Assembly: GCF_058153355.1 (NCBI RefSeq)
Contig: NZ_CM177019.1
Strand: one strand, 5' to 3'
DNA: 64,000 bases
Part shown: positions 3,296-64,000 of the stretch, piece by piece
Numbering within the stretch: position 1 is the stretch's first letter
How the letters are laid out: each line of letters starts with the position of its first letter
Made by a program: the position numbers and the translations under genes
Notes under the pieces: model-generated
Database searches by the model: none
What the model was told of the DNA's origin: nothing
The model's input: the letters and a program-made list of their open reading frames with translations, nothing else

Positions 3296-6219
3296 ATGCC
3301 CCGCAGCACCTGGTTCAAAGCATTATTGTTGTTTGTTGCCCTTTGGGCACCCTTAAGTCAGGCAGAAACGGGATGGCAGCCGATTCAGGAAACCATCCGT
3401 AAAAGTGATAAAGATAACCGCCAGTATCAGGCTATACGTCTGGATAACGGTATGGTGGTTTTGCTGGTTTCTGACCCGCAGGCGGTTAAATCGCTCTCGG
3501 CGCTGGTGGTGCCCGTTGGGTCGCTGGAAGATCCCGAGGCATACCAGGGGCTGGCACATTACCTTGAACATATGAGTCTGATGGGTTCGAAAAAGTACCC
3601 GCAGGCTGACAGTCTGGCTGAATACCTCAAAATGCACGGCGGCAGCCACAATGCCAGCACGGCACCGTATCGCACGGCTTTCTATCTGGAAGTTGAGAAC
3701 GACGCCTTACCCGGTGCGGTAGACCGCCTGGCCGATGCTATTGCTGAACCCTTGCTCGACAAGAAATACGCCGAACGTGAGCGTAATGCGGTGAACGCTG
3801 AATTAACCATGGCGCGTACGCGTGATGGGATGCGCATGGCACAGGTCAGCGCAGAAACCATTAACCCGGCACACCCAGGTTCAAAGTTTTCTGGTGGTAA
3901 CCTCGAAACTTTAAGCGATAAACCCGGCAATCCGGTACAGCAGGCGCTGAAAGATTTCCACGAGAAATATTACTCTGCCAATCTGATGAAGGCGGTTATC
4001 TATAGCAAGAAGCCGCTACCGGAGCTGGCGAAGATGGCTGCTGATACTTTCGGTCGCGTGCCGAACAAAGAGAGCAAAAAACCGGAAATCACTGTGCCGG
4101 TAGTCACCGACGCGCAAAAGGGCATTATCATTCATTACGTCCCGGCGCTGCCGCGTAAAGTTCTGCGCGTTGAGTTTCGCATCGATAACAATTCAGCGAA
4201 GTTCCGTAGTAAAACGGATGAATTGATTACCTATCTGATTGGTAATCGCAGCCCAGGTACACTTTCTGACTGGCTGCAAAAGCAGGGATTAGTTGAGGGC
4301 ATTAGCGCCAATTCCGATCCTATCGTCAACGGCAACAGCGGCGTATTAGCGATCTCTGCGTCTTTAACCGATAAAGGTCTGGCGAATCGCGATCAGGTTG
4401 TGGCGGCCATTTTTAGCTACCTCAATCTGTTACGCGAAAAAGGGATTGATAAACAATACTTCGATGAACTGGCGAATGTGCTGGATATCGACTTTCGTTA
4501 TCCGTCAATCACCCGTGATATGGATTACGTCGAATGGCTGGCAGATACCATGATTCGCGTTCCTGTTGAGCATACGCTGGATGCAGTCAATATTGCCGAT
4601 CGGTACGATGCTAAAGCAGTAAAAGAACGCCTGGCGATGATGACGCCGCAGAATGCGCGTATCTGGTATATCAGCCCGAAAGAGCCGCATAACAAAACGG
4701 CTTATTTTGTCGATGCTCCGTATCAGGTCGATAAAATCAGCCCACAAACTTTCGCTGACTGGCAGAAAAAAGCCGCCCACAAACTTTCGCTGACTGGCAG
4801 AAAAAAGCCGCCAATATTGCGCTCTCCTTACCGGAGCTTAACCCTTATATTCCTGACGATTTCTCGCTGATGAAGTCAGAGAAGAAATACGACCATCCAG
4901 AGTTGATTGTGGATGAGGCGAATCTGCGCGTGGTGTATGCGCCGAGCCGTTATTTTGCCAGCGAGCCTAAAGCCGATGTCAGCCTGATTTTGCGTAACCC
5001 GAAAGCCATGGACAGCGCCCGCAATCAGGTGATGTTTGCGCTTAATGATTATCTTGCCGGACTGGCGCTTGATCAGTTAAGCAACCAGGCGTCGGTTGGT
5101 GGCATAAGTTTTTCCACCAATGCTAACAACGGCCTTATGGTTAATGCCAATGGTTACACCCAGCGCCTGCCGCAGCTGTTCCAGGCTCTGCTGGAGGGCT
5201 ACTTTAGCTATACCGCTACGGAAGAGCAGCTTGAGCAGGCGAAGTCCTGGTATAACCAGATGATGGATTCCGCAGAAAAGGGCAAAGCGTTCGAGCAGGC
5301 GATTATGCCCGCGCAGATGCTCTCGCAAGTGCCGTACTTCTCGCGAGATGAACGGCGCAAAATTTTGCCTTCAATCACTTTGAAAGAGGTGCTGGCCTAT
5401 CGCGACGCCTTAAAATCAGGGGCTCGACCAGAGTTTATGGTTATTGGCAACATGACCGAAGCCCAGGCAACAAAGCTGGCACGCGATGTGCAAAAACAGT
5501 TGGGCGCTGATGGTTCGGAGTGGTGTCGTAACAAAGATGTCGTGGTCGATAAAAAACAATCCGTCATCTTTGAAAAAGCCGGTAACAGCACCGACTCCGC
5601 ACTGGCAGCGGTATTTGTACCGACTGGCTACGATGAATACACCAGCTCAGCCTATAGCTCTCTGCTGGGGCAGATCGTACAGCCGTGGTTCTACAATCAG
5701 TTGCGTACCGAAGAACAGTTGGGCTATGCCGTGTTTGCGTTTCCAATGAGCGTGGGACGTCAGTGGGGCATGGGCTTCCTGTTGCAAAGCAATGATAAAC
5801 AGCCTTCATTCTTGTGGGAGCGTTACAAGGCGTTTTTCCCAACCGCAGAGGCAAAATTGCGGACGATGAAGCCAGAAGAGTTTGCGCAAATCCAGCAGGC
5901 GGTAATAACCCAGATGCTGCAGGCACCGCAAACGCTCGGCGAAGAAGCATCGAAGTTAAGTAAAGATTTCGATCGCGGCAATATGCGCTTCGATTCGCGT
6001 GATAAAATCGTGGCCCAGATAAAACTGCTGACGCCGCAAAAACTTGCTGATTTCTTCCATCAGGCGGTGGTCGAGCCGCAAGGCATGGCTATTCTGTCGC
6101 AGATTTCCGGCAGCCAGAACGGGAAAGCCGAATATGTGCATCCTGAAGGCTGGAAAGTGTGGGAGAACGTCAGCGCGTTGCAGCAAACAATGCCCCTGAT
6201 GAGTGAAAAGAATGAGTGA
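3296..6219 (+). pseudogene. ptrA: Protease III (pitrilysin) gene disrupted by a 35-bp tandem duplication; reads as two ORFs 3296..4870 and 4870..6219
   Basis: N-terminal ORF has a signal peptide and the HxxEH zinc motif (HYLEHM); it terminates 20 codons after the duplication; the second ORF continues in another frame; removing one 35-bp copy gives a single 962-aa ORF. Confidence 0.85.
4741..4810 (+). repeat. Perfect tandem duplication, 2 x 35 bp (cccacaaactttcgctgactggcagaaaaaagccg), inside ptrA
   Basis: Positions 4741-4775 and 4776-4810 are identical; the length is not a multiple of 3. Confidence 0.95.
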
Positions 6220-53767: not shown

Positions 53768-56002
53768 ATGGTTGCGGTAAGAAGTGCACATATCAATAAG
53801 GCTGGTGAATTTGATCCGGAAAAATGGATCGCAAGTCTGGGTATTACCAGCCAGAAGTCGTGTGAGTGCTTAGCCGAAACCTGGGCGTATTGTCTGCAAC
53901 AGACGCAGGGGCATCCGGATGCCAGTCTGTTATTGTGGCGTGGTGTTGAGATGGTGGAGATCCTCTCGACATTAAGTATGGACATTGACACGCTGCGGGC
54001 GGCGCTGCTGTTCCCTCTGGCGGATGCCAACGTAGTTAGCGAAGATGTGCTGCGTGAGAGCGTCGGTAAGTCGGTCGTTAACCTTATTCACGGCGTGCGT
54101 GATATGGCGGCGATCCGCCAGCTGAAAGCGACGCATACTGATTCTGTTTCCTCCGAACAGGTCGATAACGTTCGCCGGATGTTATTGGCGATGGTCGATG
54201 ATTTCCGCTGCGTGGTCATCAAACTGGCAGAGCGTATTGCTCATCTGCGCGAAGTAAAAGACGCGCCGGAAGATGAGCGCGTACTGGCGGCAAAAGAGTG
54301 CACCAATATCTACGCGCCGTTGGCGAACCGTCTTGGGATTGGGCAACTGAAATGGGAGCTGGAAGATTACTGCTTCCGTTATCTCCACCCGACCGAATAC
54401 AAACGCATCGCAAAACTGCTGCATGAACGCCGTCTCGATCGCGAACACTATATCGAAGAGTTTGTCGGCCATCTGCGCGCTGAGATGAAAGCTGAAGGCG
54501 TTAAAGCTGAAGTGTATGGCCGTCCGAAACACATCTACAGTATCTGGCGCAAAATGCAGAAAAAGAACCTCGCCTTCGATGAGCTGTTTGATGTGCGTGC
54601 GGTACGTATTGTCGCCGAGCGTTTACAGGATTGTTATGCCGCACTGGGGATAGTGCACACTCACTATCGCCACCTGCCGGATGAGTTCGATGATTACGTT
54701 GCGAACCCGAAACCGAACGGTTATCAGTCTATTCATACTGTGGTGCTGGGGCCGGGCGGTAAAACCGTTGAAATCCAAATCCGCACCAAACAGATGCATG
54801 AAGATGCAGAGTTAGGTGTTGCTGCGCACTGGAAATATAAAGAAGGCGCGGCAGCTGGCGGTGCACGTTCGGGACATGAAGACCGAATTGCCTGGCTGCG
54901 TAAACTGATTGCGTGGCAGGAAGAGATGGCTGATTCCGGCGAAATGCTCGACGAAGTACGCAGCCAGGTCTTTGACGACCGGGTGTATGTATTTACGCCG
55001 AAAGGTGATGTCGTTGATTTGCCTGCGGGATCAACGCCGCTGGACTTCGCTTACCACATCCACAGTGATGTCGGACACCGCTGCATCGGGGCAAAAATAG
55101 GCGGGCGCATTGTGCCGTTCACCTACCAGTTGCAGATGGGCGACCAGATTGAAATTATCACCCAGAAACAGCCGAACCCCAGCCGTGACTGGTTAAACCC
55201 AAACCTCGGTTACGTCACAACCAGCCGTGGGCGTTCGAAAATTCACGCCTGGTTCCGTAAACAGGACCGTGACAAAAACATTCTGGCAGGGCGGCAAATC
55301 CTTGACGACGAGCTGGAACATCTGGGGATCAGCCTGAAAGAAGCAGAAAAACATCTGCTGCCGCGTTACAACTTCAATGATGTCGACGAGTTGTTGGCAG
55401 CGATTGGTGGCGGGGATATCCGTCTCAATCAGATGGTGAACTTCCTGCAATCACAATTTAATAAACCGAGTGCCGAAGAGCAGGATGCCGCCGCGCTGAA
55501 GCAACTTCAGCAAAAAAGCTATACGCCACAAAACCGCAGTAAAGATAACGGTCGGGTGGTGGTTGAAGGTGTCGGCAACCTGATGCACCACATCGCGCGT
55601 TGCTGCCAGCCGATTCCTGGAGATGAGATTGTCGGCTTCATTACCCAGGGGCGCGGTATTTCAGTACACCGCGCCGATTGCGAACAATTGGCGGAACTGC
55701 GCTCCCATGCGCCAGAACGCATTGTTGACGCGGTATGGGGCGAGAGCTACTCCGCCGGATATTCGCTGGTGGTCCGCGTGGTGGCTAATGATCGTAGTGG
55801 GTTGTTACGTGATATCACGACCATTCTCGCCAACGAGAAAGTGAACGTGCTTGGCGTTGCCAGCCGTAGCGACACCAAACAGCAACTGGCGACCATCGAC
55901 ATGACCATTGAGATTTACAACCTGCAAGTGCTGGGCCGCGTGCTGGGTAAACTCAACCAGGTGCCGGATGTTATCGACGCGCGTCGGTTGCACGGGAGTT
56001 AG
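53768..56002 (+). CDS. relA: GTP pyrophosphokinase ((p)ppGpp synthetase I) RelA
   Basis: 744 aa. Confidence 0.95.
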   Translation: MVAVRSAHINKAGEFDPEKWIASLGITSQKSCECLAETWAYCLQQTQGHPDASLLLWRGVEMVEILSTLSMDIDTLRAALLFPLADANVVSEDVLRESVGKSVVNLIHGVRDMAAIRQLKATHTDSVSSEQVDNVRRMLLAMVDDFRCVVIKLAERIAHLREVKDAPEDERVLAAKECTNIYAPLANRLGIGQLKWELEDYCFRYLHPTEYKRIAKLLHERRLDREHYIEEFVGHLRAEMKAEGVKAEVYGRPKHIYSIWRKMQKKNLAFDELFDVRAVRIVAERLQDCYAALGIVHTHYRHLPDEFDDYVANPKPNGYQSIHTVVLGPGGKTVEIQIRTKQMHEDAELGVAAHWKYKEGAAAGGARSGHEDRIAWLRKLIAWQEEMADSGEMLDEVRSQVFDDRVYVFTPKGDVVDLPAGSTPLDFAYHIHSDVGHRCIGAKIGGRIVPFTYQLQMGDQIEIITQKQPNPSRDWLNPNLGYVTTSRGRSKIHAWFRKQDRDKNILAGRQILDDELEHLGISLKEAEKHLLPRYNFNDVDELLAAIGGGDIRLNQMVNFLQSQFNKPSAEEQDAAALKQLQQKSYTPQNRSKDNGRVVVEGVGNLMHHIARCCQPIPGDEIVGFITQGRGISVHRADCEQLAELRSHAPERIVDAVWGESYSAGYSLVVRVVANDRSGLLRDITTILANEKVNVLGVASRSDTKQQLATIDMTIEIYNLQVLGRVLGKLNQVPDVIDARRLHGS

Positions 56003-56097
56003 TCTTACATAGCTGGATATGGCGTCAGCCGTATCCAGCGATATCTTTTACTCGAAGGTATTACACCTGACAGACCCGCAATTTTCAGGACATTCTA

Positions 56098-56889
56098 ATG
56101 AATCAAATCGACCGTTTGCTCACTATTATGCAGCGTCTTCGCGACCCGGAAAACGGCTGCCCGTGGGATAAAGAGCAGACATTTGCCACCATTGCACCTT
56201 ACACCCTTGAAGAAACCTACGAAGTGCTGGACGCCATCGCCCGTGAAGATTTTGACGATCTGCGCGGTGAGCTCGGCGATCTATTGTTTCAGGTGGTGTT
56301 TTACGCGCAAATGGCTCAGGAAGAAGGGCGCTTTGATTTTAATGATATCTGCGCCGCGATTAGCGATAAGCTAGAACGTCGCCATCCACATGTTTTTGCA
56401 GGCAGTTCTGCCGAAAACAGTAATGAAGTGCTTGCCCGTTGGGAGCAAATCAAAACCGAAGAGCGCGCGCAGAAAGCGCAGCATTCGGCGCTGGACGATA
56501 TTCCTCGTAGTTTACCGGCTTTAATGCGTGCGCAAAAAATCCAGAAACGTTGCGCCAACGTTGGCTTCGATTGGACGACGCTTGGTCCGGTAGTCGATAA
56601 AGTCTACGAAGAGATCGACGAGGTGATGTACGAGGCGCGGCAGGCTGTTGTCGACCAGGCTAAACTGGAGGAGGAAATGGGTGACCTGCTGTTTGCCACG
56701 GTCAACATGGCCCGCCATTTAGGGACAAAAGCAGAGATTGCACTACAAAAAGCCAATGAAAAATTCGAGCGCCGTTTTCGCGAAGTGGAGCGTATTGTTG
56801 CCGCGCGTGGACTGGAAATGACAGGTGTTGACCTCGAAACAATGGAAGAAGTCTGGCAACAGGTAAAACGGCAGGAAATTGATCTCTAA
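56098..56889 (+). CDS. mazG: Nucleoside triphosphate pyrophosphohydrolase MazG
   Basis: 263 aa from MNQIDRLLTIMQRLRDPENGCPWD; starts only 95 bp after the relA stop. Confidence 0.93.
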   Translation: MNQIDRLLTIMQRLRDPENGCPWDKEQTFATIAPYTLEETYEVLDAIAREDFDDLRGELGDLLFQVVFYAQMAQEEGRFDFNDICAAISDKLERRHPHVFAGSSAENSNEVLARWEQIKTEERAQKAQHSALDDIPRSLPALMRAQKIQKRCANVGFDWTTLGPVVDKVYEEIDEVMYEARQAVVDQAKLEEEMGDLLFATVNMARHLGTKAEIALQKANEKFERRFREVERIVAARGLEMTGVDLETMEEVWQQVKRQEIDL

Positions 56890-58826: not shown

Positions 58827-60140
<1,314 letters not shown>

Positions 60141-60181
60141 GTCTGACTTTATCTGATTTAAAAATGCCAGCCTTCGGGCTG

Positions 60182-61607
60182 TAATGCCGATCAGTTAAGG
60201 ATCAGTTGACCGATCCAGTGGCTGTGTAAGAATCCGGAAACGCTCACTTGTTTCCGGATTTTTTTATGCACATTGGACAGGCTCTTGATCTGGTATCCCG
60301 TTACGATTCTCTGCGTAACCCACTGACTTCTCTGGGGGATTACCTCGACCCCGAACTCATCTCTCGTTGCCTTGCCGAATCAGGTACTGTAACGCTACGC
60401 AAGCGCCGTCTTCCCCTCGAAATGATGGTCTGGTGTATTGTTGGCATGGCGCTTGAGCGTAAAGAACCTCTTCACCAGATTGTGAATCGCCTGGACATCA
60501 TGCTGCCGGGCAATCGCCCCTTCGTTGCCCCCAGTGCCGTTATTCAGGCCCGCCAGCGCCTGGGAAGTGAGGCTGTCCGCCGCGTGTTCACGAAAACAGC
60601 GCAGCTCTGGCATAACGCCACGCCGCATCCGCACTGGTGCGGCCTGACCCTGCTGGCCATCGATGGTGTGTTCTGGCGCACACCGGATACACCAGAGAAC
60701 GATGCAGCCTTCCCCCGCCAGACACATGCCGGGAACCCGGCGCTCTACCCGCAGGTCAAAATGGTCTGCCAGATGGAACTGACCAGCCATCTGCTGACGG
60801 CTGCAGCCTTCGGCACGATGAAGAACAGCGAAAATGAGCTTGCTGAGCAACTTATAGAACAAACCGGCGATAACACTCTGACGTTAATGGATAAAGGTTA
60901 TTACTCACTGGGACTGTTAAATGCCTGGAGCCTGGCGGGAGAACACCGCCACTGGATGATACCTCTCAGAAAGGGAGCGCAATATGAAGAGATCAGAAAA
61001 CTGGGTAAAGGCGATCATCTGGTGAAGCTGAAAACCAGCCCGCAGGCACGAAAAAAGTGGCCGGGACTGGGAAATGAAGTGACAGCCCGCCTGCTGACCG
61101 TGACGCGCAAAGGAAAAGTCTGCCATCTGCTGACGTCGATGACGGACGCCATGCGCTTCCCCGGAGGAGAAATGGCGGATCTGTACAGTCATCGCTGGGA
61201 AATCGAACTGGGATACAGGGAGATAAAACAGACGATGCAACTGAGCAGGCTGACGCTGAGAAGTAAAAAGCCGGAGCTTGTGGAGCAAGAGCTGTGGGGT
61301 GTCTTACTGGCTTATAATCTGGTGAGATATCAGATGATTAAAATGGCGGAACATCTGAAAGGTTACTGGCCGAATCAACTGAGTTTCTCAGAATCATGCG
61401 GAATGGTGATGAGAATGCTGATGACATTGCAGGGCGCTTCACCGGGACGTATACCGGAGCTGATGCGCGATCTTGCAAGTATGGGACAACTTGTGAAATT
61501 ACCGACAAGAAGGGAAAGGGCCTTCCCGAGAGTGGTAAAGGAGAGGCCCTGGAAATACCCCACAGCCCCGAAAAAGAGCCAGTCAGTTGCTTAACTGACT
61601 GGCATTA
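60182..61607 (+). mobile_element. IS4 insertion sequence, complete (1426 bp) with terminal inverted repeats
   Basis: Left end taatgccgatcagttaagg and right end ccttaactgactggcatta are inverted repeats; flanked by direct repeats cagccttcgggctg at 60168-60181 and 61608-61621; joining the flanks gives aaaaatgccagccttcgggctggcatttttt. Confidence 0.9.
60266..61594 (+). CDS. insG: IS4 transposase (DDE family)
   Basis: 442 aa from [16 protein letters not shown]; enclosed by the IS4 terminal repeats. Confidence 0.9.
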
Positions 61608-61639
61608 CAGCCTTCGGGCTGGCATTTTTTATGGCTGAG

Positions 61640-62545
61640 TTACCAGCGACCGGAAGCACCGCCACCGCCAGAAGAACCGCCACCTCCGCTAAATCCGCCG
61701 CCACTTGAGCCGCCACCGGAAGAGGATGAAGAAGAACCTTTTCTTGAAGCTCTTTCTTTACCGAGCGTCTTGTATTTGGCTCGTAGCTTTTTATTAACGA
61801 TAAGCCAAAAGATAAGCAGCGCTACGATCGCAAAAGGCGTTAACATACCGCAGGCAACGATTAAATTCGTCCATGGTCCTGGCTCGGCAACATAGAGGAA
61901 TACCATCCCGTAAATTGCGGCAGTGAGAGTTATCCAGGGTAGATTCGACGGATCGGTAAAAACAACAAAATATGAAAGCACTGCCAGCAATATAAGTACA
62001 GCAAGCGAAAATGGGATAGGGGGATTGATACTGTAATAATTCCCCCTGCCTTCCGGTAATTCACCATTCATCAGAAGTGCGCCGATATTTTCGCTTGCCA
62101 GTGTTAACCCCCCCATCAGGTCATCACTTTTGAAAGCAGGGATTAATATGTCACGGATAATCTTTGCCGCTTGCAGGTCGGTAACCACCCCTTCCAGCCC
62201 ATAGCCGACTTCTATACGAACAGCATGATCTTCCCAGGCAACCAGAAGTAAAATGCCATCGTTTCGCTGCTTATCTCCCAGTTTCCAGCTATCAAAAACG
62301 CGTGTTGCATATTGTTCAATAGAATCGTCTCCGGTGGATGGCACTATTAATACGGCGACCTGTGCCCGTGTTTTTTGTGTAATATCCTGCAGCTGTTGTG
62401 TCAGTGATTGTTGTTCAGACGTGCTTAAGGTACCAGTAATATCGGTCACCTGTTGGCGCAGCTCCGGCACAGCAATTTGCTGGGCAAGCACAGGAAGGCA
62501 CCATAAAGTGAGTAGAAAAAGGATTATACGCATAACGATCACCAA
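61640..62545 (-). CDS. TPM-domain (YgcG-like) membrane protein with a Gly/Ser-rich C-terminal tail
   Basis: 301 aa; signal peptide, TPM-type region (ILLLVAWEDHAVRIEVGYGLE), two or three TM helices, tail SSSSSSGGGSSGGGFSGGGGSSGGGGASGRW. Confidence 0.75.
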   Translation of the reverse strand: MVIVMRIILFLLTLWCLPVLAQQIAVPELRQQVTDITGTLSTSEQQSLTQQLQDITQKTRAQVAVLIVPSTGDDSIEQYATRVFDSWKLGDKQRNDGILLLVAWEDHAVRIEVGYGLEGVVTDLQAAKIIRDILIPAFKSDDLMGGLTLASENIGALLMNGELPEGRGNYYSINPPIPFSLAVLILLAVLSYFVVFTDPSNLPWITLTAAIYGMVFLYVAEPGPWTNLIVACGMLTPFAIVALLIFWLIVNKKLRAKYKTLGKERASRKGSSSSSSGGGSSGGGFSGGGGSSGGGGASGRW

Positions 62546-63687
62546 CGGCCGGATGAACTGCCGCCTCCTGAAGAACCGCCGCCACCGCGGAAAGAATTTT
62601 TCGACGAAGAGCGAGAATGAGCATTACGATTCCCCGTTTTCCTGTTGCTTTTATGTCCTGATCCCAGTTTAAGATTGCCAGTAAATTTGGCCACAATGAT
62701 CAGCAGAACGATGCCTGCAATGGTTATTGGGCCGATAAAATGATCAATTAGCCCAATAATTGTTGAGATGAATGCTATATCTTTATTACTGGCGAACACC
62801 AGGCACCATCCCACAACAATTATCAGCAGCACGACAAACAATGAGTTTCGTTCGGATTGAGAAAACTGCTGAGTCGTCTTTTGTTTTTTCACTTTAGCGT
62901 TTTTATTTTGGGGGGCCAGCATCATAGGAAATGCGCGGCATATATTAAAAACTACCGCGAGACGCTGCCAGCAGATTGCTGCGAAAAATAAACTAAAACA
63001 AACGACCGATACCCGCCGAATGATGACATCGTCCTGAAAGGAGAAAAACCAGACCATAGGAGTAATCATCGATATCATCCATATGCCAGGCCCGGGACGG
63101 CTGGTAAATCGCCAGAGGACAACGATGGCAACGATCATCAGTAATGTCCAGGCAAGACATGGCAGCGAGCGTTGCGGATTAGCAAACAGATGATTGGCTA
63201 AAGCATCCAAAGGGCTAAGGTTCGCTTTGATATGGGTAAACTGTGCGATGCTTTCAATTCCCTGCGTTAACCCGGAGAAGAGATTATTTTTTTTGAATTC
63301 CGGTTGCATATGGTAATGAACAATTTGCGCAGCTTGTTCCGGTGGCAGCATCTCTTCCAGTCCATGCCCAATCTTCATTGACGCCAGCCCTTCCGGCCAA
63401 ACGACGAGAATTAAGATACCTTCGCCGTACCGCTTCTCTCCAACAGGTTTCCAGTGATATATCCCGTAGCTTTGCGAGGCTGCAAGTTTAATGTCTTTAC
63501 CCCCAGTGGTCGGCGTTACCAACACGGCCACCTGAAAGTGGTTTTGCTGCTCGAGAGTCTGTAATTGTTGATTTAAAGCAGTTTGTTCTTCTGTCGTTAA
63601 TGTCCCGGTTAAGTCAGTTACTGAAGGCAATTGTTCAGCGAATGCCTGGAAACCACATAGCATCAGAAGTAAGAGAAAAATACGCAT
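62539..63687 (-). CDS. Paralogous TPM-domain polytopic membrane protein with a Gly/Ser-rich tail
   Basis: 382 aa; signal peptide, TPM-type region (ILILVVWPEGLASMKIGHGLE), several TM helices, tail GGGGSSGGGSSSGRW; stop overlaps the start of the downstream gene. Confidence 0.7.
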   Translation of the reverse strand: MRIFLLLLMLCGFQAFAEQLPSVTDLTGTLTTEEQTALNQQLQTLEQQNHFQVAVLVTPTTGGKDIKLAASQSYGIYHWKPVGEKRYGEGILILVVWPEGLASMKIGHGLEEMLPPEQAAQIVHYHMQPEFKKNNLFSGLTQGIESIAQFTHIKANLSPLDALANHLFANPQRSLPCLAWTLLMIVAIVVLWRFTSRPGPGIWMISMITPMVWFFSFQDDVIIRRVSVVCFSLFFAAICWQRLAVVFNICRAFPMMLAPQNKNAKVKKQKTTQQFSQSERNSLFVVLLIIVVGWCLVFASNKDIAFISTIIGLIDHFIGPITIAGIVLLIIVAKFTGNLKLGSGHKSNRKTGNRNAHSRSSSKNSFRGGGGSSGGGSSSGRW

Positions 63688-63714
63688 TTCAATTCCTTTT
63701 GTTACCAGCGCCCG

Positions 63715-64000
63715 GAGGCGCCACCGCCGCCAGATGAACCGCCGCCGCCGCTGAAATTATCATTGTCAAAAGAGGATGAAGAGGAAGATGACGACGATGA
63801 TGAAGAACGCCTGGAGGCCGAGTTACTTCTTTCGTAATGTGACGGTCGGTTGGCACTGCGCATCGAATCCCGAACCTTTTTGCCGAAGGGGGTAAAAGCG
63901 ATGGCGACAGCCAGGAACGGTGTGGCGAAGCAGAGTAATGTTGCGAGTACTCCCCAGCTTCCGCTGAAACCTGCTATAGGTAAAACAAAGGCCAGTACAA
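63715..64000 (-). CDS. C-terminal portion of a third paralog; gene continues beyond the window
   Basis: Minus-strand reading frame open to the window edge; ends ...DNDNFSGGGGSSGGGGASGRW, the same tail as the two upstream genes. Confidence 0.55.

Follow-up and report, generated by a model that had tools for sequence, protein, structure and literature searches.

The 64,000-nucleotide window analyzed here (contig NZ_CM177019.1 of NCBI RefSeq assembly GCF_058153355.1) ends, from position 61,640 onward, in a tandem array of three genes encoding membrane proteins with a TPM domain, all on the minus strand and all terminating in a tail rich in glycine and serine. We refer to the eno-proximal gene as gene 1, to the middle one as gene 2, and to the one cut by the window edge as gene 3 (Table 1). 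The initial annotation of the array as tandem paralogous TPM membrane genes with a common tail was confirmed by the open reading frames (ORFs), which gave two complete genes and a cut one, and by matches to the Pfam family TPM_phosphatase (PF04536) in gene 1 (E = 1.2e−38, residues 33 to 156) and gene 2 (E = 1.4e−22). The readable part of gene 3 encodes the last transmembrane (TM) helices, a polyserine linker, and the tail FSGGGGSSGGGGASGRW. The remainder of this third gene could be recovered from its full-length homologue of 302 amino acids (aa) in the closest genome (L001:10098-11003), which also matches PF04536 (E = 6.7e−41). Signal peptides, TPM domains, and unequal numbers of TM helices, previously noted for the two complete genes, were found as well: a Sec-type N-terminal hydrophobic leader is present in all three proteins, and hydropathy gave three helices for genes 1 and 3 and about five for gene 2. 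The product of gene 1 consists of a signal peptide, a TPM domain predicted to be periplasmic, three TM helices, and a basic Ser/Gly tail, and that of gene 2 has a K-rich internal loop.

Table 1. Features of the TPM array and of its eno-side flank, with positions in the window
Feature	Position	Strand	Description
Gene 1 (TPM gene)	61640..62545	−	ORF; 301 aa counted from TTG 62545
Gene 1 terminal motif	61643..61693	−	17 codons: FSGGGGSSGGGGASGRW
Gene 2 (TPM gene)	62539..63687	−	ORF; 382 aa
Gene 2 terminal motif	62542..62592	−	17 codons: FRGGGGSSGGGSSSGRW; 3 substitutions
Gene 3, 3' part	63702..>64000	−	Frame open to base 63998; 98 C-terminal residues readable
Gene 3 terminal motif	63705..63755	−	17 codons: FSGGGGSSGGGGASGRW, identical to gene 1
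eno	58842..60140	+	Convergent with the array; conserved flank
IS4 copy	60182..61607	+	1,426 bp; transposase ORF 60248..61594; not part of the array

The stop codon of gene 2 overlaps or abuts the GTG and TTG start candidates of gene 1, and 14 nucleotides (nt) containing AAGGAA separate the stop of gene 3 from the ATG of gene 2. With intergenic spacings ranging from 4-nt overlaps to 14 nt, the three genes thus show operon-like packing. Gene 1 has three start candidates, TTG 62545, GTG 62542 (RefSeq-style), and ATG 62533. The last is the probable true start, since the N terminus that it would give (MRIILFLL...) parallels those of the other paralogues. Searches aimed at naming the products were little informative. 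NCBIfam gave sub-threshold matches only, to the Psb32 and MamQ models, with 32.7 and 34.3 bits for the Psb32 equivalog NF047379 (cut-off of 160). A match of gene 1 to the Pfam “bacteriocin” family YxzE (E = 4e−4) was taken as an effect of Gly-rich composition. Membership in an anti-phage defense system was rejected, since neither LemA, encoded by the neighboring gene described below, nor any of the three TPM proteins matched a defense-system profile of PADLOC-DB.

The closest locus among 5,426 complete Escherichia coli genomes (L001) is only 97.9% identical to the window. It has the order eno, then on the opposite strand gene 1, gene 2, gene 3, and a gene of the LemA family, followed by queE. 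This lemA, which would lie beyond the window, is directly upstream of gene 3 on the same strand in L001, in uropathogenic E. coli (UPEC; L003), in EC974 (L004), in O157:H7 (L006), and in a distant Escherichia (L093). Its product matches PF04011 (E = 1.8e−48) and carries the lipobox LSGC; it scored 90.8 bits against the MamQ model NF040966 (cut-off of 250), and is LemA-family but not MamQ. The complete four-gene unit was also found in the UPEC, EC974, and O157:H7 genomes. The distant Escherichia shows the same array and the same flanks, with a gene 1 only 70% identical to that of the window; the array is therefore old in the genus. Judged by gene order, the array of the window is the downstream three genes of a lemA-gene 3-gene 2-gene 1 unit between queE and eno. 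It is an annotated, ancestral, strain-variable operon and not a new kind of element.

About 20% of the 5,426 complete E. coli genomes carry the full unit. Gene 2 was present in 1,104 of the 5,426 (20%) and lemA (at least 80% coverage) in 1,451 (27%), while the body of a ygcG gene of the K-12 type was found in 3,934 to 4,290 (73 to 79%). Further states of the locus consist of lemA, gene 3, gene 2, and a mosaic gene 1, or of lemA, gene 3, and an unrelated ORF of 120 codons. The number of TPM genes ranged from one to three among E. coli, in agreement with the initial annotation, which had raised a possible variation in copy number. In O157:H7 strain MB9-1, gene 3 (L006 4587-5495) has an in-frame stop after ...GVLAT, leaving 224 aa without the last TM helix and the tail, and the tail of gene 2 (L006 3439-3500) ends in SSVRW, where V replaces a near-invariant G at −3. 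These changes hint that the unit is decaying in the O157:H7 lineage. The Prokaryotic Genome Annotation Pipeline (PGAP) labels gene 3 as “incomplete, missing C-terminus” in L001 (10332-11003) and in EC974 despite an intact frame, probably an artefact of annotating low-complexity sequence.

The K-12 locus (DH1, L097) carries a single ygcG, as suggested in the initial annotation, together with the 46-codon yqcG. YgcG occupies the same slot beside eno and has a signal peptide, a TPM domain, about three TM helices, and the tail. Its last 25 residues are identical to those of the product of gene 1, and the DNA of the tail and 3' flank is about 93 to 96% identical between K-12 ygcG and gene 1. K-12 nevertheless differs from the window in having one gene instead of three, with a body only 42 to 44% identical to that of gene 1, and from the full unit in having lemA reduced to yqcG. 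Alignment of yqcG (DH1 3300-3440) with L001 (11540-11660) showed a near-identical queE-side region, and the hydrophobic stretch of YqcG, KTFTKIIFIFSVLVFNDNE, is in frame with the LemA signal peptide, RTFIVIIFIFNLSGCGYND, with loss of the lipobox. All that is left of lemA beside K-12 ygcG is its upstream region and the first ~35 nt of the gene. As read from these alignments, yqcG is a 5' remnant of lemA, a relationship that we did not find stated in the literature. The possibility that K-12 ygcG arose as a fusion of gene 3 and gene 1 by recombination between tails or domains was rejected, since its first ~240 nt match none of the sampled paralogues. K-12 thus represents a reduced locus, and strains keeping the full unit, such as O157:H7, many UPEC, and the strain of the window, are better models for genetics.

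The tails of the three genes had been described as near-identical, down to their 3' DNA. This holds for the peptides, which are identical between genes 1 and 3, and not for the DNA, where the 55-nt tail repeats are only 84% (genes 1 and 3) and 75% (genes 1 and 2) identical and the longest exact run common to any two paralogues is 11 to 13 nt. Comparison of genes 1 and 3 over their last 17 codons gave nine synonymous and no nonsynonymous changes, which points to selection on the peptide and not to gene conversion. This indicates that the terminal peptide is under purifying selection.

We then asked how far this ending extends beyond the array, using the TPM domain alone as a query against 1.84 billion cluster representatives; the tail was excluded to avoid bias. 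The search returned 22,051 representatives at E ≤ 1e−3. Of the 149 best, 112 carried the motif, 109 of them with the exact terminal W. Their last 17 positions read [F64 S14 W10 Y8]-[S74 G21 R11]-G-G-G-G-[S/G/R] in the first half and [S69 F38]-G-G-G-G-[A98 S10]-S108-[G97]-x-W109 in the second, with near-invariant A at −5, S at −4, and G at −6 to −8. The consensus drawn from the 109 representatives, [FWY]-S-GGGG-x-[SF]-GGGG-A-S-G-x-W-COOH, fits all three genes of the window. Among the 37 representatives lacking the motif, 6 were frameshift translations of the GGN tract, and many of the remainder were short. The Arg/Trp-rich ends of P0180, P0200, P0212, P0216, P0231, and P0257 correspond to this tract read out of frame, and public protein sets thus hold frameshifted versions of the tail. 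Judged from these alignments, conservation of the motif is position-specific, spans phyla, and goes far beyond chance, which sets it apart from low complexity. The Gly-rich ending of the ASGxW type appears as a hallmark of the whole family of YgcG-type TPM proteins and not of the array. A Gly-rich extension had already been noted in a preprint on Psb32. We found no solved structure with a chain containing the tail or a similar sequence, and profile matches to fusion constructs of G protein-coupled receptors were discarded as artificial Gly-Ser linkers.

The paralogy of the three genes, proposed initially, is supported. At the amino acid level they are 50% (genes 1 and 3), 36% (genes 1 and 2), and 33% (genes 2 and 3) identical. 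A neighbor-joining tree of TPM domains placed genes 1 and 3, together with K-12 ygcG, in a small ten-member clade; among its named members are Klebsiella spallanzanii, Yersinia, and Yokenella/Serratia. Gene 2 sits on a long branch, with gene 1 as its nearest relative. On this tree, gene 2 is a fast-evolving TPM paralogue. The proposal that the repeated tails serve as recombination substrates fared less well: these old paralogues, which share no exact run longer than 13 bases, are poor substrates for homologous recombination.

Exchange nevertheless takes place between alleles of the same gene. The DNA identity of gene 1 and K-12-type ygcG is 27 to 77% along the body and jumps to 92 to 93% at the tail and 3' flank, and the UPEC gene 1 changes from window type to K-12 type within the TPM core, at the conserved segment YATRVFD. 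Read this way, mosaic exchange between gene 1 alleles occurs, with breakpoints at the conserved TPM core and where the tail begins. EC974 has lost one GGGGSS block in frame from gene 3 (L004 3590-3650), which ends in FSGGGGGASGRW; by this comparison, in-frame slippage occurs inside the Gly tract. These features could suggest that the tails are alike through gene conversion or recent duplication, that they drive unequal recombination, and that their sequence is merely a flexible spacer: the copy number of the locus differs among strains, the breakpoint between gene 1 alleles coincides with the start of the tail, where DNA identity to K-12-type ygcG rises from a range of 27 to 66% to one of 92 to 93%, and a GGGGSS block can be lost in frame. 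We consider this explanation highly unlikely. Conversion would have erased the synonymous differences, found at 9 of the 17 codons, and was rejected on this ground. The shared exact runs are at most 13 nt, the paralogues are only 33 to 50% identical in an array kept in a distant Escherichia, K-12 ygcG is not a simple fusion of genes 3 and 1, and unrelated phyla conserve the motif in genes present as single copies.

The genomic context of tailed TPM proteins outside Escherichia was surveyed by context look-ups and in 80 loci out of a scan of 100,044 species genomes. The lineages covered include Pseudomonadota, Bacteroidota, Acidobacteria, Elusimicrobia, Nitrospinota, Chlorobi, Spirochaetes, Actinomycetota, Planctomycetota, and candidate phyla. 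LemA was encoded in 67 of the 80 loci. Exactly one tailed TPM protein was encoded in 73, two in a single locus, and three in none. A short untailed TPM protein was found in 57 loci, and the combination of LemA with a tailed and a short TPM protein in 48. The usual operon (e.g., L007, L009, and L016-L092) shares with the Escherichia unit a lemA directly upstream and a long TPM protein with signal peptide, TM helices, and motif. It differs in pairing one tailed with one short untailed TPM, where the Escherichia unit has three tailed ones and no short one. The three short TPM proteins read by eye had no N-terminal hydrophobic leader, and short TPM proteins are therefore presumably cytoplasmic. 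None of the Escherichia loci examined has a short tailless TPM gene between queE and eno, and Brenneria, Yokenella, and Buttiauxella have lemA with a single tailed TPM gene and no short one. Three tailed TPM genes without a short one look specific to Escherichia, as an expansion of a LemA/TPM envelope module. Genes of the type VI secretion system (T6SS) lie beside the lemA-TPM pair in Yokenella/Serratia (L095 1-5975), Buttiauxella (L096 4393-7210), and GCA_025642115 (L007 3414-8855). In one of these three genomes the pair has VgrG, DUF4123, and PAAR genes directly upstream, in another it is directly followed by ImpA_N/VasL, and in the remaining one VgrG lies at a distance of 3.8 kb. With only three cases, no association can be claimed.

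The segment after the last TM helix contains 7 to 9 K and R residues versus 0 to 4 D and E in the three proteins of the window, and in 44 homologues the net charge averaged +2.4 behind the last TM helix and −0.6 ahead of the first one. Three TM helices were counted in 32 of these homologues by a crude estimate. Since the TPM domain is exported, the number of helices is odd, and the following segment is rich in K and R, hydropathy and the positive-inside rule predict a cytoplasmic tail and a periplasmic TPM domain.

This topology bears on the suggestion, made in the initial annotation, that the common ending is a sorting, anchoring, or processing signal. Such a signal would act outside the cytoplasm, in the manner of LPXTG, PEP-CTERM, or GlyGly-CTERM or of a protease/PDZ tag, and the motif does resemble one in its location at the extreme C terminus, its invariance across phyla, and an aromatic last residue like that of several recognition tags. 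LPXTG, PEP-CTERM, and GlyGly-CTERM also share with it a short conserved C-terminal motif with glycines. In these systems, however, a TM helix and basic residues come after the motif, which needs a dedicated sortase-type enzyme, whereas here it comes last, after one, three, or five TM helices and a K/R-rich stretch, hence on the side predicted to be cytoplasmic. Moreover, no sortase, rhombosortase, or exosortase was annotated near the operon (within 8 kb in L001) or in the loci of other taxa. A sorting signal is thus very unlikely, and the suggestion is not sustained.

Structure prediction gave a different indication of what the tail may do. The AlphaFold model of the gene 1 product (alignment of 88 sequences) had a mean predicted local distance difference test (pLDDT) score of 81.6, exceeding 90 over the TPM domain, with helices at residues 179 to 196, 199 to 220, and 224 to 250. 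Residues 260 to 288 are disordered in the model (pLDDT < 50), and the last ~12 residues are again confident (pLDDT of 80 to 95) and include a strand at 297 to 300. When the TPM domain was deleted (residues 166 to 301, alignment of 44 rows), the tail dropped to a pLDDT of 45 to 55 and formed no strand. This suggests that the confidence of the tail depends on the TPM domain, as would be expected if the tail adds a strand to the TPM sheet. Foldseek matched the gene 1 model to BA41 (5ANP; E = 1e−10, target-normalized TM-score of 0.92, root mean square deviation of 1.6 Å over 145 columns, 30% identity), to the further bacterial TPM structures 7TBR, 2KW7, and 4OA3, and also to TLP18.3, Psb32, LMTP1, and a subunit of the mycobacterial III2IV2 supercomplex. 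The TPM fold of the model is further supported by 3PVH, 8C7I, and the supercomplex subunits 8OVC_V/6ADQ_J.

The glycine tracts offer another way of bringing such tails together: they could associate in a bundle of the polyglycine II or beta type and oligomerize the paralogues in the cytoplasm, with the terminal W at the membrane interface. The motif has two regularly spaced GGGG blocks, the operon layout suggests that the three tailed proteins of Escherichia are coexpressed where no short TPM is available, and operons lacking a short TPM retain the tail. Against this, the tail is predicted to be disordered once the TPM domain is removed, and we found no solved structure with a similar sequence. 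We give such a bundle little chance.

Taken together, we favor, at slightly better than even confidence, an explanation in which the genes encode a LemA/TPM assembly module of the inner membrane that has a cytoplasmic docking tail and has undergone an Escherichia-specific expansion. LemA would be a periplasmic lipoprotein. The TPM proteins would be exported by their signal peptides, their TPM domains facing the periplasm, and an odd number of helices (three, about five, and three) would hold each of them in the inner membrane. The C terminus would then lie in the cytoplasm as a basic, disordered Ser/Gly linker followed by the 17-residue ending. The periplasmic TPM domains are most likely, by analogy, nonenzymatic factors that assemble or stabilize inner membrane complexes, and we infer that they work with LemA in an envelope stress response. 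The tail may act as a tethered docking peptide on the cytoplasmic side, its A-S-G-x-W end adding a strand to, and plugging into, a partner of the TPM fold, which in the usual operon could be the short signal-less TPM paralogue. A role in assembly or maintenance at the inner membrane is moderately supported by analogy, and the docking of the tail is a hypothesis drawn from the models. The most specific claim, that GGGG-A-S-G-x-W-COOH is a tethered TPM-fold ligand through which the TPM/LemA module of the periplasm is coupled to a partner of the TPM fold in the cytoplasm, is tentative and, in our estimate, rather unlikely.

Published work is consistent with parts of this explanation. TPM domains have been proposed to be chaperone-like assembly factors for membrane-linked complexes rather than phosphatases (PMC11237479; bioRxiv 10.1101/2025.01.14.632903), and CcoZ of Campylobacter, modelled on MSMEG_4692, is needed for normal activity of the cbb3 oxidase (PMC8267372). 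The link to envelope stress is circumstantial: RefSeq names YqcG a cell envelope stress response protein, phosphorylated PhoP binds DNA upstream of yqcG-queE, reaching into the yqcG side (PMC4974570), and lemA and a TPM gene are jointly induced in a Flavobacterium sppA mutant.

Several points weigh against our explanation. The predicted topology has hydropathy and the positive-inside rule as its whole basis, and the crude count of TM helices was even in 10 of the 44 homologues. Docking is read from two AlphaFold monomer runs in which the partner of the strand is not directly visible, and the run with the TPM domain deleted used a shallower alignment than the other (44 versus 88 rows). Docking in cis also contradicts the predicted topology, in which the membrane separates the periplasmic TPM domain from the cytoplasmic tail; docking in trans, on a TPM fold located in the cytoplasm like that of the short paralogue, would be consistent with it. 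Yet the tail is kept without a short TPM protein in the Escherichia array, in other enterobacterial lemA-TPM pairs, and in at least 16 of the 80 loci, and an operon-encoded short TPM is therefore not the only partner. Our searches of the literature on ygcG, on LemA with TPM, and on glycine-rich TPM proteins found no functional study of these proteins. Lastly, weak phosphatase or ATPase activity is attributed to some TPM domains in works cited by PMC11237479.

This last point raises the alternative that the proteins are periplasmic phosphatases or nucleotidases, the array encoding three isozymes whose tail only regulates or anchors them. The literature is divided on such activities of TPM domains; the Psb32 preprint describes them as low, and a phosphatase role has been judged unlikely in favor of membrane complex assembly (bioRxiv 10.1101/2025.01.14.632903). 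The structurally characterized TPM members are noncatalytic subunits or assembly factors. The TPM domain of gene 2 is strongly diverged (E = 1e−22), and its orthologue has no precomputed Pfam match. We consider the isozyme alternative unlikely.

Few bacterial gene sets without an assigned function are as widespread as the LemA/TPM operons, for which the present analysis provides an exact C-terminal motif, a predicted cytoplasmic side for it, and a testable idea of docking. If the coupling by the tail is true, it would be a new trans-membrane device present in well over ten thousand protein clusters, and Escherichia would have rewired it into three tailed paralogues with no operon-encoded cytoplasmic partner.

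The surroundings of the array show features of their own. The IS4 copy between eno and gene 1 lies in the hairpin of a bidirectional terminator common to both genes, 32 nt past the stop of gene 1, and is flanked by a 14-bp duplication, CAGCCTTCGGGCTG, at 60168-60181 and 61608-61621. The eno-IS4-ygcG junction was found at 99.7% identity in several E. coli with a K-12-type ygcG, and the terminator looks like a recurrent IS4 target. Farther from the array, relA and mazG are separated by a gap of 96 nt (56002-56098), the toxin-antitoxin pair mazEF being absent here, unlike in L001 and L002. This arrangement without mazEF recurs in some complete E. coli genomes, with a best identity of only ~97%; the lineage of the window appears to stand slightly apart from the bulk of sequenced E. 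coli. Relatives carry, outside the window, a clustered regularly interspaced short palindromic repeat (CRISPR) array just past queE (L001 12802-13257, L002 8209-9091, and L097 4590-4983), which varies in annotated length from 273 to 883 bp and is absent from the UPEC locus L003.

Among known systems, the best structural and profile matches to gene 1 are BA41 of Bizionia argentinensis (5ANP), 7TBR, 2KW7, and 4OA3. In vitro ATPase/ADPase or phosphatase activity has been reported for BA41 and other solved bacterial TPM proteins, of which only the TPM domain was solved, the tail being in no chain. YdjH of Bacillus subtilis is set apart by its description, which gives it PspA, band-7, and zinc-ribbon proteins as partners instead of LemA. 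MSMEG_4692 of the III2IV2 supercomplex and CcoZ (Cj1484) resemble the proteins of the array as TPM-fold accessory proteins of respiratory membrane complexes, although the likeness is remote (Foldseek E values of 0.009 to 0.05, ~20% identity) and no LemA partner has been shown for them. Psb32/TLP18.3, which acts in the assembly and repair of photosystem II, has in common with them the TPM fold, a location on the lumenal side of an energy-transducing membrane, and a membrane anchor. It differs in its photosystem context, E. coli having no photosystem, and Psb32 lacks the Gly-rich C-terminal extension according to its preprint. The analogy with MSMEG_4692, CcoZ, and Psb32/TLP18.3 is the reason for which we propose an assembling or stabilizing role for the TPM proteins of the array.

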